DNA of 64,000 bases from an uncultured bacterium (GCA_964448115.1 CAYUVA010000009.1:1-64000), one strand, 5' to 3'. Shown: positions 1 to 24,481, counted from the stretch's first letter. Numbers and translations: made by a program. Notes: a model not told the origin generated them from the sequence alone.

Positions 1-1052
1 TGATCCTCTTAAACAAGAGTTTAACCACGATCTCTGCGTTCCCTTTTTCCCGGTTTATCGTAGTGCGTTCAGCTTGCTGGAGGTGTGGATGACAGATCAG
101 CCTGCCGCAGAGGCTTTTTCAAAGATAAAGGGTATTCTTCGTTTTAGCATAACCAAATTGTGTTTGGGCTATCTGCGAAAGAAACATGACCAATCTCTCT
201 CAGAAGGTCATGATGAGCCAATAGGTCAGCCCTTGTTAGAAAGAGATTTCAACTCCGAGACTTTGAATAGCGATTCTTTTTCAATTCCCGATGAGGAAGA
301 CGAACAGATTGAGGAGGAAACTCTCAAACAAAAGACCGAGTCTGCTGTATCATTTGAAGAAGTGCCTAGTAAAGAGAAACCTGGTTCACAAAGTGTGAAC
401 GAAGTAGAAATACTATCCAAGGAGATTGATGAGATCGTAGAAGATACTAAAAGTAGCTCAATAATAGTGCAAGTGGAGGAGAATGAGGGTACTAACATCA
501 CAGATTGGGAGGATAATCCCGATAAAAATGTGATTGAAGATGAAGAAGCTATCGGCTCCAATGTTCAAATAACACTTTCCTCTGAACAAGAAACATCTGC
601 GACAGATATAAATGATAAGTATATACAAGTTTCTCATAAGAGAAAACCAGTGGAAAGAGGAGGTAGGTCTCGAAGCAAAGCTAAGGCGCTATAAGGTTGA
701 GGTGGACAAAAAAGAGCTTGCCATTCCTTTGCGGGATTTCCGCGATGCTGAAGAGGTTGAAAATAAGCATAAAAAATCCTATTTTAGAATACTGATCCGC
801 AGTAAAGGCGAACAACTAAATGAAGCTATTATTGGTGTTGTTCTAGTTGAAGAAACTACAATATCTCCCCCTCCACCTCCGATTGTAATTGGTGGCAGAA
901 AAAAGAGAAATGGTAAAGGTTACAGTATAAAAGAGATCGAGAAAGCAAATATACCATTAGCGAGTGTAAAACAGTCTAAAATACCTTATGACAAGCGCAG
1001 GAAAAGCTTACATTCATGGAATGTTGAGAGACTTAAACATTTTAGGATTTAG
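1..1052 (+). pseudogene. 5'-truncated acidic hypothetical protein, probably one disrupted gene (frames <2-694 and 612-1052), ending in an eL13-like domain
   Basis: The frame of ORF 74-694 is open back to base 2 and has a D/E-rich linker. The overlapping ORF ends RNGKGYSIKEIEKANIPLASVKQSKIPYDKRRKSLHSWNVERLKHF. Confidence 0.5.
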
Positions 1053-1055
1053 AAA

Positions 1056-1710
1056 ATGGATGTAATGAATCTTACAAAACAAGTCGAAGAAAGGTATGGG
1101 CGCTATATTGAAACTGCCTTTTACTTCCAGGATCCCGACTTTGTTGGCAGAATAGGAAATGGGGAATTAATCGAGGCTATCCGTGATCCTGGTGATCCAT
1201 CATTTAAGGTAACTTTTTTCGCCCCTTTGAAGAAGATTGGAACGAAGCAGCAAGTGATGAAAATAATAAGGTTAACGCCAATCTGTTTCAACTTTGTCTT
1301 GAATGCGGAGCAATAATCCCCTATAAGTCCAAAGAAAACCAGCTATCATGTGGACATAGCCATTGGATTCTAGCTGAGCGACAAGATGAAGCTCAGCAAA
1401 AAGAAGATCGACTTCCAAGGTGTAGCGTCTTAGGAGATGATACATGTTTTACCCTTGCTGAAGCGGAAGTTTCAAGCGATTTCAGAACGATAAAAAAGCT
1501 TGAGGATATTTAGGCAAGAGAAGGAGATTATGACACTGCCAAATGGGCTAAGCTTCGCTCTAATGCAATTGTTGAGGAAGATGTCCTCTCCTTTCTCTCA
1601 CGCAAGGCTGTGATCCCCAAATATGGTTTTCCGGTAGATGTAGTAGAATTGGACACCCAATCGCTAGGGACATCGGAATCCTCTGAAATCTTACTTCAAA
1701 GAGACCTCAT
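1056..1710 (+). pseudogene. Heavily deleted DEAD/DEAH-box DUF1998-type (DruE/DrmB-like) helicase remnant
   Basis: N-terminus MDVMNLTKQVEERYGRYIETAFYFQDPD. Cys segment LCLECG..SCGH in another frame. VLSFLSRKAVIPKYGFPVDVVEL..LQRDL with an in-frame TAG at 1511-1513. No Walker or DEAH motifs remain. Confidence 0.65.
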
Positions 1711-1945
1711 TGTAATAGGCGATGTACTCTTGGGGCAGCTTTATGGCATGATCCTCGTTGAAAATAAAGTAAGCCATAAGCCGCGCAATTTTCTGGATCG
1801 GGAAACCATAGGAAAGCTCCTCGGTCTGCTTCCCCTCGAAGCTAGGATCTTCTACATGGTGAAGTTCTGGTGTGCTTTGCGCCACGTACGGGGAGTTTGG
1901 TTCTTTGTGGCACACGAGTGGTACAGGGTGTAAAGAGATTTCACT
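1710..1945 (-). mobile_element. Possible degenerate IS transposase (integrase-core) scrap
   Basis: Minus-strand peptide FIFNEDHAIKLPQEYIAYYN resembles the C-terminal segment of rve integrase-core transposases and abuts the helicase breakpoint. Confidence 0.3.
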
Positions 1946-2002
1946 TGTTTGTTTTCATCGGCGGTGCTCGGATGTCCGTTTCACGGTCTTTTTTCCTAAC
2001 GA

Positions 2003-2076
2003 TACGCCCAGAGGGATTCGAACCCCCGACCTACTGATTCGTAGTCAGTCGCTCTATCCAGCTGAGCTATGGGCGC
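2003..2076 (-). tRNA. tRNA-Arg(ACG), 3' CCA not encoded
   Basis: Reverse complement GCGCCCATAGCTCAGCTGGATAGAGCGACTGACTACGAATCAGTAGGTCGGGGGTTCGAATCCCTCTGGGCGTA folds as a cloverleaf with anticodon loop CT-ACG-AA. Confidence 0.97.
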
Positions 2077-2261
2077 ATATAAATAAAAACAAGGTCTAAT
2101 TATTTTCACTATTTTTCTTGTGTTCAATTTTTGACCATATTAAGTGGACCCGATTCATTGGACAGCAAATCGACATAATTAAGTTAGATTTTGCTTCGGT
2201 ATTACTATAGCTCTTCATTTTTACTTAGTTCCTTTTTGCTATCGCAAATCATCATGTAAAA

Positions 2262-2290
2262 AACCTAACATTCGTCGAAAAGAATGTCAA
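2262..2290 (-). promoter_or_regulatory. Putative sigma70 promoter pointing toward tRNA-Arg
   Basis: Minus strand TTGACA-N17-TAGGTT with TG extension. Confidence 0.4.
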
Positions 2291-2525
2291 GAAAAACTTT
2301 ACTTTTAATACAACTCCCATATAATTTTTTCCCCTATCCACAAGATAGGGCTTGGCTGGGGAGTCCCGATAAATCGGGAAGCGCCAAGAGGAGCGACAAG
2401 ACAAAATGGGCAGGGCAACTATCCTGCCTTCTTTACTGCAACATTCGCTAACTTACTTGACTTTAATAAAATATTTTTATAAATATTGAATGTTATGATA
2501 AATATTTTCTTTTGCTAGGTTTAAC

Positions 2526-2795
2526 ATGTCGGTTACATGGGAAAGCAAGGGCTACTGGTGGTTGCCAGAAGTGAACAAAAAGGTTGCTGGTACAATAATA
2601 TTTGATACTGATAAGGGTATTATATTAGATTTATTTGGAAAATTAACTGATGATATTGATTTTTGCTATAAAAATTGCGAAATTATAAATGGCCAACTAC
2701 ATAATGGCGTTCTAATTACATTGTTCGATAGCTTCGATTTAAAAGATATTTTTCTCCTAAAAATAATGTACCAACAAGTTATTTTTAATAAATGA
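2526..2795 (+). pseudogene. Truncated ApeA-like protein (N-terminal domain only, HEPN part missing)
   Basis: ESKGYWWLPE..VAGTIIFD..GIILDLFG..IINGQLHNG..ITLFD matches the ApeA N-terminal pattern. It is only 89 aa and very AT-rich. Confidence 0.6.
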
Positions 2796-2880
2796 AGCCA
2801 ACAGCAATATATTAATATAAAATATGGGTTAACAATATGGTTGAATACTTATAATAAAATATTTGTTATTACACGATCCG

Positions 2881-5280
2881 ATGAGCAAGATATTGCTACT
2901 GGGGTTGGCGCCGCTGCCCTTTGAGAATACAACCAAGACCTTCGGTCCTGGTATCCGCGCCTGGCAGTTCGCCAAACCGCTGATAAGTCAGGGACACGAG
3001 CTGCTGCTAATCGCCTCTCGCATACCGTTCGTATATAAGGATCGTCCCAGAGTCGAGGTTATCTCCCAACAGGACAACTTCAAATACATACAGGTCGAAC
3101 AGCAGGAGTTCGAGATGGGAGACCTGCTGCACAAGCAAATCAAGGAGTTCGAGCCTGATTGCATCGTCGGCGCTACCTCATTCCCATCGTACATAGCCTC
3201 GCTGCTTGAGGGCGACCTGCCTGCCTGGATGGATCTCTTCGGCTCGGTGATGGCAGAGGCTCAGGCGAAGGCTTACGCTTACGGCGATGACAGCTACATC
3301 CGCCACTTCTGGCGCCACACCGAGGCTGCACTGGACAGGGGCGATGCCTTCTCCAGCGTCTCCAACTACCAGAAATACGCGCTGATCGGCGAGCTTGGAA
3401 CCAGGGGGAGGCTCAACGCTGCAACCGCCGGCTACGAGTTCGTGCATACCATCCCCTGCGGCATCGAGGGAGAGCCGTATAAGCACACCAGGCAGGTAAC
3501 CAGGGGGATCGACACCCCAAAGGACGCCTTCATCGTGCTACACAGCGGGGGCTACAACACCTGGATGGATGTCAAGACCCTCTTTCACGGCCTGGAAAAG
3601 GCGATGGCAAAAGACCCCTCGATTTACTTCGTATCCACCGGCGGAGCCATACAGGGGCACGACGAGATGACCTATCCTTGGCTGGAAAAGGCTGTCACTG
3701 GCTCGCGCTTCAAGGGGCGCTTCATCTTGAAGGGATGGCAGCCCAAGGATGATGTCCATAACTATTACTTCGAGGCTGATGTGGGGATCAACCTCGACAA
3801 GCATATCTACGAGGGGCTTTTAGGGAGTAGAAACCGCTTCCTCGATTGGATGCGAGCCGGGTTGATCGCGGTTACCACCGAGCTATGCGAGCTATCCAGC
3901 GAGCTTATAAACATGGAGCTTTTCTTCAAGGTCAATGCCAAAGACGCGGACCATCTCGCCCAGGTGCTGCTTAAACTAAGCGCCGATAGGGATAAACTCC
4001 CCGAATTAAGGCGAGAAGCCAGCGAGTTCGTGTTCAAGCGCTACAGCTTCGAGGAGACCACCAAGCCCCTGATAGCCTGGGCGGATTCACCCAAGCGGGC
4101 GCCAGATGCGCAAAGAGCCGTTGATATGGTAACTCCCCTCCAAGCCAGGCTCGACCGCGAATCAAAGAAAATTCAGCGATACTTGCAGAAGCTTGAAGCG
4201 GTGCTCGATGCAAAAAATAGCGAGCTGCTTGAGCTTAGGCGCTATCTTAGACATGTGGAGAGCGAGAACCGCAAGATACTAAGCCAGCCCTGGATGTTCG
4301 CCTTATATAAGCTCAAAGAGCTGATATTCAAAGGCAAGCAAAAAAAAAATGACTGGCGACCGCTGAAACCGCTGCCCAAAAAGCCGCTCGTATCGGTTGT
4401 TATCGTAACCTATAACTCCCAGGATGTTATCGAGGATTGCCTGCATAGTTTATACGCCTCCAAGTACCACAACATGGAGGTCATCGTGGTGGATAATGAC
4501 TCAAGCGATAACACGGTGGAGATTATTAAAAGGAAATTCCCTGGAATTAAGGTGATCGAAGCGGGCGAGAACCTCGGTTTCGCGGGAGGTAATAATCTCG
4601 GTTTCAGGCACGCTAGCGGGCAAATCATCTTTATGCTCAACCCGGACACGGTCATTGAGCCAGGGACAATTGGCAGCCTGGTCGAGTTCATGGCCAGCGA
4701 TACCAGAGGCGAGATCGGCATGGTCGGCTGCAAGCTGTATAACAGCGATAAGAAGACCTTGCAGCACTGCGGGGGCATTCTGCATCCCAATGCGCTGACC
4801 GATCATTTCGGCGCTGGCGAGGCTGACAGCGGGCTTTACGAGCGAATGCGCGATGTTGACTATGTTACCGGCGCTGCGCTCGCCTTCAGGGCTGATTTGC
4901 TTGATGTTATCGGGCAACTACCCACCATCTACTATCCTGCCTACTACGAGGAGCTTGATTTCTGCTGCCGCGCCAGGAAGGCAGGCTATCGGGTGGTTTA
5001 CTATCCCAAAGCGAAGCTGGTGCACAAGGAATCGACCATCCTGGGCAAGCTGAGCCAGCGCTTCCTTTACCTGTATCACCGCAATCGCCTGATATTCGTG
5101 CTTATGAACTACTCGCTGCGCGGAATATTTGATCGTTTCTTACCCGCTGAGCTAGGATGGCTGAAGAATGCTCGCCCAAGGGATCAGCTAAAGGCGTTGT
5201 TAAAGGCATATAGTTACAATATAATCAAGCTGCCGATTACATTATTCACCCGATGGTTCAGGGTGAGACGAAGATTGTAA
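2881..5280 (+). CDS. Bifunctional glycosyltransferase: GT-B (GT4-like) + coiled coil + GT2
   Basis: C-terminal VSVVIVTYNS, VVDNDSSD, NLGFAGGNN, LNPD and YYEELD are GT2 motifs. N-terminal region has a GT-B pattern. ATG at 2881 preferred as start. Confidence 0.85.
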   Translation: MSKILLLGLAPLPFENTTKTFGPGIRAWQFAKPLISQGHELLLIASRIPFVYKDRPRVEVISQQDNFKYIQVEQQEFEMGDLLHKQIKEFEPDCIVGATSFPSYIASLLEGDLPAWMDLFGSVMAEAQAKAYAYGDDSYIRHFWRHTEAALDRGDAFSSVSNYQKYALIGELGTRGRLNAATAGYEFVHTIPCGIEGEPYKHTRQVTRGIDTPKDAFIVLHSGGYNTWMDVKTLFHGLEKAMAKDPSIYFVSTGGAIQGHDEMTYPWLEKAVTGSRFKGRFILKGWQPKDDVHNYYFEADVGINLDKHIYEGLLGSRNRFLDWMRAGLIAVTTELCELSSELINMELFFKVNAKDADHLAQVLLKLSADRDKLPELRREASEFVFKRYSFEETTKPLIAWADSPKRAPDAQRAVDMVTPLQARLDRESKKIQRYLQKLEAVLDAKNSELLELRRYLRHVESENRKILSQPWMFALYKLKELIFKGKQKKNDWRPLKPLPKKPLVSVVIVTYNSQDVIEDCLHSLYASKYHNMEVIVVDNDSSDNTVEIIKRKFPGIKVIEAGENLGFAGGNNLGFRHASGQIIFMLNPDTVIEPGTIGSLVEFMASDTRGEIGMVGCKLYNSDKKTLQHCGGILHPNALTDHFGAGEADSGLYERMRDVDYVTGAALAFRADLLDVIGQLPTIYYPAYYEELDFCCRARKAGYRVVYYPKAKLVHKESTILGKLSQRFLYLYHRNRLIFVLMNYSLRGIFDRFLPAELGWLKNARPRDQLKALLKAYSYNIIKLPITLFTRWFRVRRRL

Positions 5281-7159: not shown

Positions 7160-10100
7160 ATGGGTAGGTTTGCGATCATGAGACGGGGAGATCCTTTATC
7201 AGGCATCCTTCTTTTGCTTTTATTTTCATCAGCCTTTGCCTCCAATGTGGAGAGACAAAGGGAATTTATCGAGAGGATCGGCTACTACTGGGTACAGGTA
7301 CCCGGCTATGAGATGGAGTTGATGGTCATACCGGGCAATAACGACTGGGCGCTCGAATATCTTAAAGATCCGCTCAATCACCCTTTCGGACAGCGAATCA
7401 AGGCTTGGGAAAAAACGCACGGGCACTATGGCTATCCATTCTGGATGACCCGCCTGGCAAGGGAGATCCTCGGATTGCCCGACTATCCAGAGCTGGAGGA
7501 TATACCGACTACCGAATGCAGCGGTGAGATCGTGTTTCCGCCAAAGGGAGGCTGGCTGTGCAACGCCGTAGAGCAGGGCGCCAAAGGCTCCAAGGGGGAT
7601 GATGTCCTTTATATCAAGATCTATAACTACGATGCGCAGAGTGGTTGCCCAAACTGCGGAGATTTTCTTAACACTGCCGACATCAGGCTAGCAGCGTATT
7701 ATAAGAATGGCTCCTCATGGGCTTGCCTGGGCATGACAAACTACTGCAATGAGTGCTGCTATGGACAAAGCGACCTCCCCAAGACATTCAGTGTAACCCT
7801 GGGCAGCCACTCCACCTTGTATGATGTGAAGATAGGAGCCATAGACTACGACTCGGCGAACGATGATGATCTCTGGTGCGAGAACAACCACTATAATATC
7901 GGAAGCCCCGGCATCTCCAGGGGGTGGCGGAATCTTGATGGAGATTTATCCACCGACTGTGGATCCGGCACCGGCACCTGCCGTGATTCGCCTAAGATGA
8001 AGGCTGACTACGAGGTCTGGTATGGCGACAACGGCATTGATGATCCGAGCTGGTCTTCCACACCGAACGCCTCCACCTGGTACAAGAGCTTCAATTTCAG
8101 TTGGATACTCCCCTCGGACAGGAGCGGCATCCAGAAGTCTGAGCTGCACTTCAGCTCCAACACTATCTTTAGCAGCGCTGATGAAAAGATCTATACGCTC
8201 TATGGCTCGGACAACATGCAGAGCGTAGGCGGAGGTCAAGGCTTGGCTGATCGTGATGGCTGGTACTACGCGGTCATTGTCTATGATAATGCCGGTAATC
8301 CGAGCGACTACAATGACAACGGCTTAGCGGTATTCAGGTTCGATGCCACCAATCCATATCACAGCGATAGCTCCAACCTGCTGGTCTCGGATGAGGCGAC
8401 CTCGGATGCGAGCGCTTATGACTGGGGTGGCTCCGATGCCAAGATAAACATGTCAGCAGCCAACGATGCCACCAGCGGCAGGGCTTATTATCAGTATGAC
8501 CGCGACAATGACCCATCGGATCAGTCCCAGCAGACCAACTGGTCTAACAACATAACCGTAAGCATCCCCGGCTGGATGAACTCGGATGGCTACCATACGG
8601 TCTATGTGCGCATAGTAGATAATGCGGGCAATGACATAGTGGTCTCGGACACGCTATACTGCGATGTGAAAGATCCGACCATCGATAAGCCGCAGTTCAG
8701 CGCTCCCACGGATACCAGCGAGCTTTCTTTCACCTCCAATCCTTATGATTCAGGCTCCGGGGTCGATAATGTCCGCTGCCAGATCACCGAGGATGGGATA
8801 ACCATTTATGATGATTGGGTCGGAAGCGACGGGGATGTAACCATCTATGACGGGGAGCACAACAAGACATATCGGGCATACATGTACGCCAGGGATGAAT
8901 CGGGCAGGACAGGCAGCGGTCAGTGGAGCGACCCGGTGACCCTGGACTGGAATCCGGCTTCTCCTTCTGGCTTGAGCGTGAACTACACAGCCGGAGGGGT
9001 TGGCTTGAGCTGGTACGATAACTCCTCCAACGAGACCGATTTCAGGGTGGAGAAGGGTGAAAATGGCACTACCTGGAGCGAGATCGGCTCACCGACAAGT
9101 CCAAGCTATAACTATAGCTGGCTATCTGGGGACACGAACAAGCGTTTCAACTTCAGGGTGCGAGCGCACAGATACTATCAGAGCGGGCACTACTACTCGG
9201 CATACAACACGAACAGCAACTGGTACTATGCTCCGCCGGCGGCGCCAAGCCAGCTCGAGGCGAATAATGTAACCAACACCTCGATAAACTTCCGCTGGAA
9301 TGATAATTCAGCCTACGAGACCGGATTCAAGGTGGTCTTGAGCGGAGTAGGTACAAGGACTGCGGATCCAGACACTGAGTACTATAGCTGGACGAGCCTG
9401 ACACCCAATACGAACTATACCTCGACCATATATGCATACATCAACGCCAGTGGCGGTTATCCAGGCGACAGCGAGCCATCCAACACCAGGATGACCTGCA
9501 CACTGGCGAGCATCCCCGCCGCCCCGACGGTCAGCAGTTACCCGCAGGATATGCACCGCCTGAATGTGAAGGTCAATCACGGCACCGGCAATCCCGANNN
9601 NNNNNNNTACGTCATCAAGGTTACTTATGCAGGGAAGGTTACCAAGTATGTGGATGCATCAGGCAACCTGGTTGACAGCATGGTCTGGCGGACGCGGGGA
9701 GACTGGGGAGGCAGCAGCGGCATCGATGTTGTCGGCTTGCAGCCGGGCACGCAATACTGTTTTTCCTGCTTTGCCCGCAACTTGAATAGTGTGATCACAG
9801 AGGAAGGAGGCATTGCCTGTGGAACCACCTCTGCGCCGACCTCCACGCCGACCAGAACCCCTAGCGACACTCCGACCTTAACTCCCACGGACACGCCAAC
9901 GACTACACCGACTGTTACCCAGACCCCGACTCGCACTCCAAGCAGAACTCCGACCAACACTCCATGCTATGTAGATGATCCCCTGGAGGCGACGCCGGGG
10001 AATGATACCCCCTTCGATGCACCATTCATTGCGCCCAACGGCATCCCGGTGCAGGAGTTATTCTGCACATCGACCGACCCGGACTGGCATCGGGTCTATG

Positions 10101-11506
10101 TTTACGACAACTACGCGTACCGCTTCTGGACATCGGAGCTAGGTAGCGGTGTTAGAACCAGCATCATACTTTACGACAGCGAGGCTTCTGGAGTGCTAGG
10201 CACCGCCAACCCGGATCCGGTCACCGGTGCCGCGTCCATCTCGTGGGTATATGACACATCAGGGGTTTATTACTTCCTGGTTCAGCCCTCGCAGAGCGCC
10301 TGGGGATACGGCGCGGATTACAACATGCAGGTTCTGGAGATGACCTTCACCCCTACCGGCACGCCGACGGTTACGCAGACGCCCACGGCGACTCCACCCC
10401 CGCCGGGAGCACCTTTGCTCGATCCAGAGCCACCCTATACTGCCGGAGCCAGCAACCGTATCTCGTGGATCCAGGGCGATCCGCCTTATGGAATCGAGTT
10501 TTACGCGCAACGGGCTATAGATCCTATGTTTAACGAGGATGTGGCTGCCAGTGGCTGGATCCCGCAGATGAACTTCACCTTTACTGACCTGCAACATGCG
10601 CAGCTTTACTATTACCGAAGCAAAGCGCGAGATGCAGACGGGAAGCAATCCCCGTGGAGCAATATCGAGTACTCCACGCAGGATTCCATTGCTCCGATAT
10701 GTCAGCTAGATCAGCCATCGCCGGGATTCATTTACGACTTCCAGTATGTCTTCAACGCAGAGGTTATCGAGGATACCAGCGGCATCGACCGCATAGAGCT
10801 TTATTACATGTACAACTATCTACCCCCCTGGCAGTTGTACATGCGATATTACTACGGCTCTCGCATCCCGTTCAATTGCCTGGAGGCTGATGGTTACGGG
10901 CTTTACGAGTTCTACACCGTCGCTTACGATAATGCGGGGAATCGAGAGGCTCAGCAGGCAACGCCAGAGTCCTTAGTAGTATTCAAGCTGACTCCCACGC
11001 CGACAGCTACACCCAGCGACACCCCGCTGACCACAGCGACACCGACCAGCACGCCAACCCCGACCTTCACTGCCACCAGCCCCTATACATCAACCCCGAC
11101 TGGCACCGGGACTCCCAGCGCAGCGCCATCCAACACGCCGACTAGAACTCCGACCAACACCGGCACGCCGTTGCCTAACCTGCGACCCGCTATTATGCTC
11201 GGTGGCTACTTCGACACCCGGCTAAATGCTGCAAGTGGCGGGATATTCAGGATGCTCGCCTTTGTGATCGACAATGATGATCCCATACGATCGGTGGAGA
11301 TTTACTACTCAGGTGTAGGCACCGGGATCTACCTGTTCGATGATGGATCTCACGATGACTTTGGGGCAGGGGATGGTATCTACGGCTTCCCGGTCAGCGG
11401 CATCGGCGGCGGACTGGTGCCTAGCAAACACCTGCTTACCCTTATAGCAACTGATGATCGTGAACTTCAGAGCCTTCGCTGGCCCTACCTCGAAGCAGGG
11501 GAATAA
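7160..11506 (+). CDS. Large secreted modular protein: Cys-rich N-domain, Ig/FN3 repeats, Thr-Pro linkers, C-terminal choice-of-anchor-X-like domain
   Basis: Signal peptide (FSSAFA). FN3 motifs LSWYDNSSNE and FRWNDNSAYE. TPT linkers. C-terminal LFDDGSHDDFGAGDGIYG. A 10-N gap at 9598-9607 means the frame across it is assumed. Confidence 0.8.
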   Translation: MGRFAIMRRGDPLSGILLLLLFSSAFASNVERQREFIERIGYYWVQVPGYEMELMVIPGNNDWALEYLKDPLNHPFGQRIKAWEKTHGHYGYPFWMTRLAREILGLPDYPELEDIPTTECSGEIVFPPKGGWLCNAVEQGAKGSKGDDVLYIKIYNYDAQSGCPNCGDFLNTADIRLAAYYKNGSSWACLGMTNYCNECCYGQSDLPKTFSVTLGSHSTLYDVKIGAIDYDSANDDDLWCENNHYNIGSPGISRGWRNLDGDLSTDCGSGTGTCRDSPKMKADYEVWYGDNGIDDPSWSSTPNASTWYKSFNFSWILPSDRSGIQKSELHFSSNTIFSSADEKIYTLYGSDNMQSVGGGQGLADRDGWYYAVIVYDNAGNPSDYNDNGLAVFRFDATNPYHSDSSNLLVSDEATSDASAYDWGGSDAKINMSAANDATSGRAYYQYDRDNDPSDQSQQTNWSNNITVSIPGWMNSDGYHTVYVRIVDNAGNDIVVSDTLYCDVKDPTIDKPQFSAPTDTSELSFTSNPYDSGSGVDNVRCQITEDGITIYDDWVGSDGDVTIYDGEHNKTYRAYMYARDESGRTGSGQWSDPVTLDWNPASPSGLSVNYTAGGVGLSWYDNSSNETDFRVEKGENGTTWSEIGSPTSPSYNYSWLSGDTNKRFNFRVRAHRYYQSGHYYSAYNTNSNWYYAPPAAPSQLEANNVTNTSINFRWNDNSAYETGFKVVLSGVGTRTADPDTEYYSWTSLTPNTNYTSTIYAYINASGGYPGDSEPSNTRMTCTLASIPAAPTVSSYPQDMHRLNVKVNHGTGNPXXXXYVIKVTYAGKVTKYVDASGNLVDSMVWRTRGDWGGSSGIDVVGLQPGTQYCFSCFARNLNSVITEEGGIACGTTSAPTSTPTRTPSDTPTLTPTDTPTTTPTVTQTPTRTPSRTPTNTPCYVDDPLEATPGNDTPFDAPFIAPNGIPVQELFCTSTDPDWHRVYVYDNYAYRFWTSELGSGVRTSIILYDSEASGVLGTANPDPVTGAASISWVYDTSGVYYFLVQPSQSAWGYGADYNMQVLEMTFTPTGTPTVTQTPTATPPPPGAPLLDPEPPYTAGASNRISWIQGDPPYGIEFYAQRAIDPMFNEDVAASGWIPQMNFTFTDLQHAQLYYYRSKARDADGKQSPWSNIEYSTQDSIAPICQLDQPSPGFIYDFQYVFNAEVIEDTSGIDRIELYYMYNYLPPWQLYMRYYYGSRIPFNCLEADGYGLYEFYTVAYDNAGNREAQQATPESLVVFKLTPTPTATPSDTPLTTATPTSTPTPTFTATSPYTSTPTGTGTPSAAPSNTPTRTPTNTGTPLPNLRPAIMLGGYFDTRLNAASGGIFRMLAFVIDNDDPIRSVEIYYSGVGTGIYLFDDGSHDDFGAGDGIYGFPVSGIGGGLVPSKHLLTLIATDDRELQSLRWPYLEAGE

Positions 11507-22506: not shown

Positions 22507-24481
22507 TTATCTTAGCGATGGATATCCGGCTGCCTCAAGAGTGAAATCGAGAACCGTCTCCTCTTCAGCCACCAGCTCTATCTGCACGAACTCAGGCATA
22601 TAGCCTTGCTTCCATGCAACTGCGGTGTATTGGCCAGCGGGTACATTCTCCAAAAGGTAAACGCCATCTTCATTGGTCCTGGTATATCTGATGCCGTGAA
22701 ATCCACCCATGCCGCCCCTTAATTCCTGTCCAGGGGTGAATCCAGGTGGCAAAAGCGCGACCCAAGCCTCGGCAAGAGACTCGCCGCTGTCTGCATCAGT
22801 AACCGTACCGCTCAATGTTGCCAATCCCGGTGCTTGGAGCGGAGATAGGGCAAAGTCCATCACGGTCAGCTCACCTTCTATGATCTCGACCTCAGCGTGT
22901 GCAGGCTGGTAACCGGCTGCTATGACTGCCATAGGCCAGGTGCCTTGAGGTACATTCTCAAAGGAGTAATAGCCATTCTCATCGGTACGAGTTACGAAGC
23001 GACCATGCGGTCTCCTGCCACCCCAGCCTTCGGGAAGCCCGCGGAAGCTGTGCGGATTGCGCACATGGGGTCCAGCCATAACCGCTACAAAGGCACCGCC
23101 GATCGGCTCGCCGGTATCAGCATCGGTTACGAAGCCTTCCAGCGCTCCAAAGGGGATCTCGCCGCGCCTGGTCAAGCCGATGTCATACTCGATCTCCTCC
23201 TCGCCGATGATCTCGAAGCTGTCGGTGTAAAGCTCATACCTTGATGCCATGGCGATAAGTGTGTACTCGCCCTCCGGGATGTTGGTTATCTCGTAGTATC
23301 CCTGCTCATCGCTTACGGCATGGAGACCACAAGGCGGACGATGGGGAGGCTCTTCACCTTCACCCCTGCCGAACACCTGTCTCGGCGGGAATTCCACATT
23401 GCCAGGTATAAGCACTATATGAGCGCCGGCAATCGGTTCCTCGGTCTCGACATCATAGACAATGCCGTACAGCGTGGCGTCGCCCTCTGGCGGCGGAGGC
23501 GGTACATTGGATTCGAGAGCGAAATCGACTGTAACCGTGCTTTCAGCTATAACCTCGACCGTTGCCTCAGCCGGGAGATAACCATGCTTATGGGCACGAA
23601 CTATGCGCTCACCAGCCGGCACCTCTTCAAGCAGGTAGTATCCCTGCTCATTGGTAACCGCAAAGCAACCGTTCCATTGGCCAACATTGACCATCGCCCN
23701 NNNNNNNNNNNNNNNNNNNNNNNNNNNNNNNNNNNNNNNNNNNNNNNNNNNNNNNNNNNNNNNNNNNNNNNNNNNNNNNNNNNNNNNNNNNNNNNNNNNC
23801 AGCTATCGGCTCGCCGGTGGCTGCATCGGTAACTATCCCCTCGATGGCGCCGAATTCATCTGGTGGTGGAGGCGGCTCCTCGCCGGGCATAAGCTCGAAG
23901 TTAAGCTCTGCCACCTGGTCGGGGATGACCTGGACGCCAGCGTGGGCGGGCATGTAGCCTTCCTTGAAGGCGTGCACCATCTGGAAGCCAGGCATCACAT
24001 CATCGAGCAGGTAATAGCCGTTCTCATCGGTGATAGCGGAGAACTCCGGTCCCCAACCTAGGCTGATCACAGCCCCAGCTATCGGCTCGCCGGTGGCTGC
24101 ATCGGTAACTATCCCCTCGATGGCGCCGAACTCATCTGGTGGGGGTGGCGGCTCTTCTGCATTCAATCCGATCTCGACATAATTTATCTCGCCGGCTACT
24201 ACTTCGACCTCGACGGTAGCCATCTCGTATCCAGGGGCAACCACATTGAGCAGCCAGGTGCGAGCCATAATATGCTCAATGAAGAACATACCCTGTTCAT
24301 CGGTGTAAGCCTGCCACATGCCAGCCATTACATGGGCGCCTGCTATAGGCTGCTGGGTAGCTGCATCATAGACCAGCCCCTCGATACTGCCGTACTGATT
24401 GGGTGGATTGGCGTAAGCGCCGAAAGCACCCGCCAGCAGCAGGATCATAATAAGTGTGAAAAGTTTTGCTGAAGATCTCAT
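22507..24481 (-). CDS. Secreted protein of tandem carboxypeptidase-regulatory-like (Cna-B-type) beta-sandwich repeats; one gene split by a 100-N gap
   Basis: Signal peptide. Repeats of G.V.DA.TGEPI.GA.V...TDENGYY...VP.G on both sides of the gap. PPPP linkers. AAGGAG SD. Confidence 0.8.

Follow-up and report, generated by a model that had tools for sequence, protein, structure and literature searches.

In this study, we analysed the first 64,000 nucleotides of contig C9 (CAYUVA010000009.1:1-64000; this whole stretch is hereafter called the window) from the 3.98-Mb, 86-contig genome of an uncultured bacterium (GCA_964448115.1), with attention to a 146-residue open reading frame (ORF) at 612..1052. 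This ORF ends in a genuine eL13-type module, the core of an archaeal/eukaryotic ribosomal protein, and is the 3' remnant of a helper (partner) gene whose intact relatives form, with a DruE-like helicase gene, a conserved two-gene module in defence islands. Overall, we read the module as the eL13-fold tail of a helper in a decayed two-gene, Druantia-like, putative defence operon, where the tail was probably a nucleic-acid head. We give this reading a probability of about 0.68, because a strongly supported identity of tail and operon is joined in it to a weaker reading of function.

The eL13-type module at the end of the ORF

The features of the window around this operon are as follows.
2..694, + strand: open frame in frame 2, cut by the contig end, acidic and of low complexity, ending in RGGRSR; tentatively assigned by its motif
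612..1052, + strand: 3' remnant of the partner gene, open frame of 146 residues, aligning with intact partners and matching residues 596-743 of protein P0008
about 654-860, + strand: last strands of the final immunoglobulin-like (Ig-like) domain, within ORF 612..1052
about 861-890, + strand: PPPPP linker, within ORF 612..1052
897..1046, + strand: eL13-like module, beta-hairpin plus three short helices, forming the C-terminal tail (PF01294, NF008914 six-frame match, PDB, model and Foldseek)
1050..1714, + strand: fragments, in two frames, of a DruE-like (YprA/MrfA family) helicase (six-frame search with the helicase of locus L005; PADLOC DruE3, E 1e-5)
2001..2077, - strand: tRNA-Arg (ACG) (ARAGORN; Rfam tRNA, 69.1 bits)

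The C-terminus of ORF 612..1052 reads ...TTISPPPPPIVIGGRKKRNGKGYSIKEIEKANIPLASVKQSKIPYDKRRKSLHSWNVERLKHFRI, its stop codon occupies 1050-1052, and the next ATG stands three bases past the stop, at 1056, as quoted in the earlier note on this DNA. That note had proposed an eL13-like domain in a bacterium and outside a ribosomal context, and profile, sequence and structure searches of the ORF bore this out. Pfam PF01294 (Ribosomal_L13e) matched the ORF at 26.6 bits (gathering score 24.9; E 6e-6), with ORF residues 96-145 on profile positions 60-113 of 180, and matched the 60-residue tail scanned alone at 29.2 bits. NCBIfam NF008914 (archaeal L13e) matched at 49.7 bits (E 2.1e-13; profile positions 26-74 of 83), and its match in a six-frame search lay at 897-1046; this score falls short of the equivalog cut-off (96), since the eL13 core is all that is present, and both profiles were covered over that core alone. 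All 53 phmmer matches at E<=1 among PDB sequences were eL13 chains, aligned over eL13 residues of about 61-120 (best E 0.0049). [quoted passage not shown] In a Foldseek search of the PDB, the top 50 matches were all chains of eukaryotic ribosomes or pre-60S particles (probability 1.00; root-mean-square deviation 1.9-4.0 Å over 57-74 columns; best E 2.5e-3), and 14 of them were chains named eL13 in the sequence search. The host genome is bacterial, with its own uS9 gene scoring 185 bits on the bacterial S9 model (cut-off 112).

One might suspect that a basic peptide matched by chance or through its composition, since only about 50 residues are matched, the NF008914 equivalog cut-off is not reached and no Foldseek E value is 1e-3 or lower. 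This explanation is rejected: four independent lines concur (Pfam above its gathering score, NCBIfam at E 2e-13, PDB sequence matches to eL13 solely, and Foldseek matches solely to ribosome chains bearing eL13), and the eL13 signature residues are kept across the 30 aligned sequences. The core R.G+GFS..E...AG.....+...I..D.RR+..H..NV..LK is common to the tails, together with the hairpin-plus-helices fold, and E108, A112, D127, R129 and R130, invariant in the tails of the family, are intact in the window ORF. What sets the tail apart from eL13 is that it holds the core only and is fused to the end of a non-ribosomal bacterial protein of 650-900 residues. This context, the C-terminal end of a multi-domain protein in a bacterial defence operon, argues against a free-standing role in a ribosomal subunit.

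The eL13 core, otherwise missing from bacteria, must have crossed domains of life, and the family clearly exemplifies the reuse of ribosomal-protein domains in a non-ribosomal setting. For annotation, an 'L13e' match in a bacterial genome should be read as a defence helper, not as a ribosomal protein. At E<=1e-5, NF008914 matched in none of 100 other genomes, all related to the host at no closer level than the same domain, as were our comparison genomes generally; 14 control genomes also had no match, the window being the sole positive control. The L13e-like module (NF008914, E 1e-13 to 1e-16) was also seen on other non-ribosomal proteins of 280-559 residues, at the C-terminus in P0014, P0019, P0020, P0038 and P0052 and near the N-terminus in P0027, where its neighbours are helix-hairpin-helix repeats resembling those in topoisomerase I and RadA. 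It thus appears to be a mobile module.

The helper family, its helicase and its exchangeable tails

An exhaustive phmmer search with the tail ORF over 1.84 billion representative proteins gave 73 matches. Some were short (59-142 residues), free-standing L13e-like proteins, twelve of which were scanned and scored 50-89 bits on NF008914; others were proteins of 560-820 residues, and one of 1268, ending in an eL13-like tail. Pfam found nothing but L13e in 16 long helpers (12 of 16 at E<=0.01, six of these above the gathering score). An alignment of seven close members, scanned against the genomes of prokaryotic species (one for each species), yielded 52 loci, which span many phyla and include one archaeal metagenome-assembled genome (MAG). 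A partner ORF was present at 50 of these loci, while L055 and L056, with matches of 33-50 residues and no such ORF, were dropped. In a word-indexed search for proteins of near length, the 116-residue product of the window itself was the only match, the partner profile had 0 matches among PDB sequences at E<=0.1, a viral contig collection gave 66 pattern matches and 0 confirmed relatives, and 40 genomes related at domain level only held no match to the 146-residue ORF.

Intact partners are 650-900 residues long and comprise, from the N- to the C-terminus, a membrane helix, a spacer of charged residues, an RGGRPR motif, Ig-like domains in tandem, a linker rich in proline and the tail. Of the partner ORFs whose 5' end is complete, 32 of 45 contain a strongly hydrophobic segment (19-residue Kyte-Doolittle mean of at least 2.3); most of these segments open the called ORF, and four lie 43-68 residues into it. 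In the sequences examined, basic residues stand after the helix and none before it, which suggests an N-out, C-in anchor with the rest of the helper in the cytoplasm, and the region from helix to motif is a charged stretch of 100-200 residues, often rich in E, K and R. The motif, [KR]RGG[RK][PS]R, lies right before the conserved core in most partners (for example at residues 109-115 of L005). It brings to mind the GRP core of the AT-hook; Pfam reported no AT-hook at E<=0.01 in the helpers scanned. A model of the L005 core and tail (566 residues, 42-row alignment; mean pLDDT 88.6, predicted template modelling score 0.74) contains an all-beta core at about 27-480, a disordered linker at 489-505 and a folded tail at 510-566. 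The Foldseek matches of the core were tandem Ig-like arrays, namely DSCAM (E 5e-8), PirB and titin, and the MG domains of complement C3; an ESM Atlas search with the Ig core had a best score of 0.77 and gave no lead. By hhalign, the core profile matched P0053, P0023 and P0015 at 100, 97.8 and 96.6% probability, and these distant helpers are also eL13-tailed.

The last 75-130 residues of the 46 partners with a complete 3' end were grouped by motif into eL13-like tails (10/46), uS9-like tails (8/46), Cys/His zinc-finger-like tails (16/46), basic helical tails (8/46) and other tails (4/46), counts that are not independent because L014/L015 and L034/L035 are near-duplicates. By eye, L019 fits the helical type and L038 resembles L041. 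Pfam L13e matched all ten eL13-like tails, eight of them above the gathering score, and Ribosomal_S9 matched all eight uS9-like tails, six of them above it. The uS9-like tail aligned with positions 6-103 of 130 of NF001099 (E 3e-18) and with residues 4-103 of 129 of uS9 chains in the PDB (E 5.5e-14); it is therefore a near-whole globular uS9 of bacterial type, without the C-terminal extension only. Helpers with this tail were found at L007, an archaeal (Methanophagales) MAG, and at L020, L023, L030, L031, L034, L035 and L039. Locus L010, whose helper is eL13-tailed, comes from a Firmicutes MAG.

Tail types were interleaved on a FastTree phylogeny of the core (36 rows; six short rows, the window among them, were left out). 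Specifically, L005 (eL13) grouped with L007 (uS9) and with L006 and L017 (zinc finger) at a support of 0.97, inside an otherwise eL13-tailed clade with a support of 1.0, and L020 (uS9) paired with L019 at 1.0; some inner nodes were weak (0.2-0.65). The cores of L005 and L007 are 76.7% identical, those of L005 and L006 70.6%, and those of L020 and L019 78.9%. The tail is thus exchanged between close relatives. As to the earlier proposal that an eL13 module had been co-opted in the helper, the tail is indeed there, and it is only one of at least four interchangeable ones.

A DruE-like helicase ORF is next on the same strand in 44 of the 50 loci; in phmmer searches with the L005 helicase, all 45 downstream ORFs matched. 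This ORF overlaps the partner ORF or starts a few to about 60 bases further on (L041). Among the six loci without it, four partners run off the contig, one has 69 bases left, and L038 alone has room; the linkage was therefore counted as 44 of 45 assessable loci, five having no room before the contig end. The predicted linkage of intact bacterial homologues to a helicase gene, and with it the two-gene module, is thereby upheld. Helicase ORFs of at least 1500 residues numbered 27, with a typical length of about 1550. In four intact helicases, Pfam found DEAD (about 100-310), Helicase_C (about 945-1026) and MZB/DUF1998 (about 1449-1532) in every one and no PLD/nuclease domain. Intact relatives thus combine a DruE profile match with all three domains, and the window holds only fragments of such a protein. 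Mean column identity is 63% for the helicases vs 36% for the helpers, and the helicases of L006, L007 and L010 are 78%, 78% and 75% identical to that of L005.

Genes around the pair vary and are often defence genes. PADLOC models matched six of the ten large upstream ORFs scanned, namely type IIG restriction-modification (twice), a DrmMI-like methylase, a second DruE-like helicase, PDC-S06 and a subtilase. At L022 (576-17116), a DrmMI-like methyltransferase (1412 residues) and a second, different DruE-like helicase (1678 residues) lie directly upstream of the pair, so that this island holds two DruE-type helicases.

Decay of the window copy and its surroundings

The window copy had been called decayed, and it is: the Ig array is gone, and about 220 of about 1570 helicase residues are kept. 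The helper matches P0008 (747 residues) over the 596-743 stretch only (window 654-1043; E 9e-19), the whole Ig array being lost, and the ORF part before the tail was modelled at low confidence (pLDDT about 35-57), as expected of a truncated beta-sandwich. The helicase remnant corresponds to residues 10-39, 509-606 and 1151-1247 of a 1573-residue intact relative, and its pieces match an intact DruE-like helicase at E 6e-29, 7e-15 and 5e-7. It is spread over two frames, a TAG interrupts it, and none of DEAD, Helicase_C and MZB/DUF1998 is left. The claim of a DUF1998-type helicase downstream thus stands for the helicase family, whose intact members carry MZB/DUF1998, and falls for the domain itself, which is deleted here; Pfam found no DUF1998/MZB in the two window pieces scanned, and the residues kept are outside the MZB position of the intact protein.

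The frame-2 open frame upstream has 230 codons, and its RGGRSR at 656-673 is the single occurrence of RGG[RK][PS]R in about 128,000 six-frame residues of the window. On weak grounds, this frame is probably the partner gene's own spacer with its basic motif, brought next to the 3' remnant in a different frame when the whole Ig array was deleted. No second or intact helper or helicase was found elsewhere in the genome, where other helicase matches (C17, C5) were weak (best E 1e-11) and fell only in those parts of the query that form its RecA domains. Positions 50-2038 are also covered, with 2 differences, by a 1989-base contig that was assembled separately from the probable source sample; it is not independent evidence, and the deleted form is not a scaffolding artefact because this contig has it. 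Contigs from three runs of one sample, probably the source, showed no joints and contained no intact alternative form; the absence of such a form proves nothing. The operon of the window is dead and its helper copy a pseudogene without function.

Similar decay products that keep the 3' end seem to exist in other genomes. In P0005 and P0010, an unrelated N-terminal piece is joined to the same 3' part of the helper, the last Ig strands and the eL13 tail; by eye, the N-terminal piece of P0005 is like the N-terminus of a tyrosine recombinase. Alternatively, the window ORF, of 116-146 residues, could have been kept as a small protein made of the tail and half an Ig domain and having its own function. 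Its frame is open, its invariant tail residues are intact, and other short forms start near the same point (P0002, 176 residues; P0004, 143; P0005, 173). However, the piece before the tail is the low-confidence truncated beta-sandwich, the operon partner is destroyed, the unrelated N-termini of P0005 and P0010 make these look like decay products, and the short database forms may be contig-end fragments, all of which leaves such a protein very improbable.

The 3' end of the tRNA-Arg gene faces the remnant operon, so that the operon is found 3' of this gene, where integrated islands usually lie. The operon would have been inserted beside tRNA-Arg and then inactivated by several internal deletions. 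An Rfam scan of window positions 1-5000 found nothing besides the tRNA. DNA upstream of base 1 is on another contig, since the window opens contig C9. Window positions 35-93 (59 bases) are 95% identical to C67:880-938, part of an ORF, with CVPFFPVYRSAFSLL.VWMT as the common peptide; at this repeat, the probable cause of the end of C9, the source sample's contigs branch. A conserved element of about 52 bases occurs in at least three copies in the genome at 82-87% identity, namely at window 106-157, C43:35769-35820 (-) and C62:9353-9403 (+), and the copies on C43 and C62 stand in the same orientation, about 130-170 bases before a gene start. Candidate identities are a promoter, an element of a 5' leader and a small repeat, and, because the window copy sits inside the frame-2 open frame, the first approximately 160 bases of that frame are argued to be non-coding. 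The window also contains runs of N at 9598-9607 (10 bases) and 23700-23799 (100 bases), the former interrupting a 1448-residue ORF (7160-11506) of a secreted-looking protein with Pro/Thr-rich linkers.

Role of the tail and comparison with known systems

In the mechanism that we propose, one N-terminal helix would tether the helper to the cytoplasmic face of the membrane, followed by the long charged spacer, RGGRPR, some five beta-sandwich domains of Ig-like type, a flexible linker rich in proline and the exchangeable tail, and a compact DruE-like superfamily 2 helicase would be translated from the next, often overlapping, gene. As a small basic head on a flexible linker, the tail would bind nucleic acid and would hold or recognise phage DNA or RNA beside the Ig array, comparable to the DruH site described below, and the helicase would then unwind that substrate. 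Among the roles considered, binding or recognition of nucleic acid is the most likely for the tail, at about even odds. It is favoured because, of the four main tail types, three have a strongly basic character, because two types stem from rRNA-binding proteins, and because the corresponding region of DruH helps form a single-stranded DNA (ssDNA) site. Specifically, net charge ranged from +9 to +15 in eL13 tails (all ten scored), from +5 to +26 in uS9 tails (6/8 scored) and from +15 to +17 in basic helical tails (4/8 scored). [quoted passage not shown]

Two other roles have to be weighed against nucleic-acid binding. The tail could instead be a docking piece that holds the helper on the helicase, like the C-terminal helical domain of P. 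aeruginosa DruH, which contacts the DruE stalk (10.64898/2026.05.13.724313) and stands in the same chain position, past the Ig array. We consider this unlikely: unrelated tails (eL13, uS9 and zinc finger) are found on cores that are 71-79% identical and beside helicases that are similarly conserved (78%, 78% and 75% to that of L005), so one surface would need to accept very different folds, and strongly basic tails of three types are typical of polyanion binders. A complex prediction for the helicase insert 320-940 with Ig5 and tail (187 residues) gave no answer (score 0.00) and speaks neither for nor against binding. The tails could also be mimics of ribosomal proteins that take the helper to ribosomes or rRNA, in which case the system would sense translation, not DNA; a uS9-like head might compete for the site on the 16S head or read hijacked translation. 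The ribosomal origin of two tail types fits this, as do the whole globular domain kept by the uS9-like tail, which lacks only the C-terminal extension, and the conservation in the tails of residues conserved in eL13. To our knowledge, however, there is no site for eL13 on bacterial ribosomes, and even so the bacterial MAGs with eL13 tails represent at least eight named groups. In close relatives, the position of the tail is taken by zinc fingers or by a module of the basic helical type, and the partner enzyme belongs to a DNA helicase family. Ribosome mimicry is thus quite improbable, and nucleic-acid binding is retained as the most likely role of the tail.

Several observations weigh against our overall reading of a Druantia-like helper with a nucleic-acid head. 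Zinc-finger-type tails are neutral to acidic (-11 to +1; 10/16 scored), so that the term 'basic nucleic-acid head' does not hold for every tail. The stalk contact of P. aeruginosa DruH would favour docking as the role of the tail (10.64898/2026.05.13.724313). Membrane topology was read by eye from the charge distribution in a few sequences. In addition, phmmer of the frame-2 ORF against partner ORFs gave 0 matches, and the assignment of that frame to the same gene is correspondingly weak. No PADLOC model matched in any of 20 helpers (16 at E<=0.01 and 4 at E<=1e-4), while E. coli DruH (L067) matched 11 PADLOC DruH models (E from 0 to 1e-14), and hhalign of the partner profile against E. coli DruH gave a probability of 0.2%. 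By sequence, then, the helpers fall outside DruH, and the analogy with DruH is one of architecture alone because there is no detectable sequence relation.

A more far-reaching possibility, which we advance tentatively and hold to be doubtful, is an undescribed subtype of Druantia with a membrane-tethered Ig-array helper and a cassette-swapped 'reader head'. Two of the heads would have been captured from ribosomal proteins (archaeal/eukaryotic eL13 and the globular uS9 of bacteria), keeping their RNA-backbone-binding surfaces, and structured phage nucleic acid would be recognised at the inner membrane face as the genome enters, with exchange of heads changing the target range. Independently of this, the family is a natural experiment, in which the same Ig-array scaffold and a well-conserved helicase (63% vs 36%) carry at least four unrelated small tails, and the role of the C-terminal domain is testable by tail swaps because one scaffold bears them all. 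Druantia is a large helicase-centred defence family whose helper proteins are only now becoming understood, and five reports from 2025-2026 disagree on whether DruH acts by sensing, by binding ssDNA or by cutting, a sensor role having been argued in one of them (10.64898/2026.05.12.724681).

The earlier note had called the helicase Druantia/DISARM-like, of which the Druantia half was sustained and the DISARM half was not. For ten helicases scanned with PADLOC, DruE1 was the best model in every case (E 5.7e-158 to 2.2e-192), DruE3 matched at about 1e-150 to 1e-166, and the DrmA, DpdJ and BrxH models reached only 1e-11 to 1e-26. DISARM was rejected: the helicase is a single fused protein, DrmA matched at only 1e-11 to 1e-18, far below DruE, and no conserved methylase or DrmC gene stands beside the pair. 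Druantia types I, II and IV, in which DruA-D, DruM/F/G or DruF/DruL accompany DruE (type IV as defined in PMC8565338), were also set aside, as the partners match no PADLOC model and the upstream neighbours vary and belong to other systems. MrfA/YprA shares DEAD, Helicase_C and MZB (DUF1998) with the intact helicases; however, the helicase here is much longer, has large insertions between the RecA domains and is tied to a helper gene, not to MrfB. In the portions of the Druantia and YprA texts that were searched, 'L13e' and 'ribosomal' were absent, and supplementary tables may list the clade; no paper was found joining L13e with DUF1998, and the terms L13e-like and eL13-like gave only unrelated work.

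The closest likeness is to Druantia type III (III-A, E. coli and P. aeruginosa), a two-gene operon in defence islands with the helper first and DruE second. The helicase here matches DruE models at E 1e-150 or better, and the helper is likewise a tandem Ig-like array followed by a C-terminal domain. In contrast, the helicase is about 1550 residues long vs 2114 in E. coli Druantia III, with no PLD/nuclease domain by Pfam, and the helper has 650-900 residues vs about 1100 in DruH, a membrane helix plus charged spacer where DruH has a globular N-terminal domain, and a small, exchangeable C-terminal domain. A pair on a Clostridium butyricum plasmid combines a 1069-residue helper with a 1559-residue DruE-like helicase, its helper being unlike the family here (hhalign 0.2%). 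On sequence and architecture, we file the system as one that would work like Druantia III, with a helper family outside DruH by sequence. Among the branches described, the helicase fits subtype III-B, in which a compact DruE without PLD domains is paired with DruH (10.64898/2026.05.13.724758), and the 'type III-like' branch of Bell et al. (PMC12458937), which is mostly without nuclease; in both cases the likeness is that of a compact DruE lacking PLD domains with one helper.

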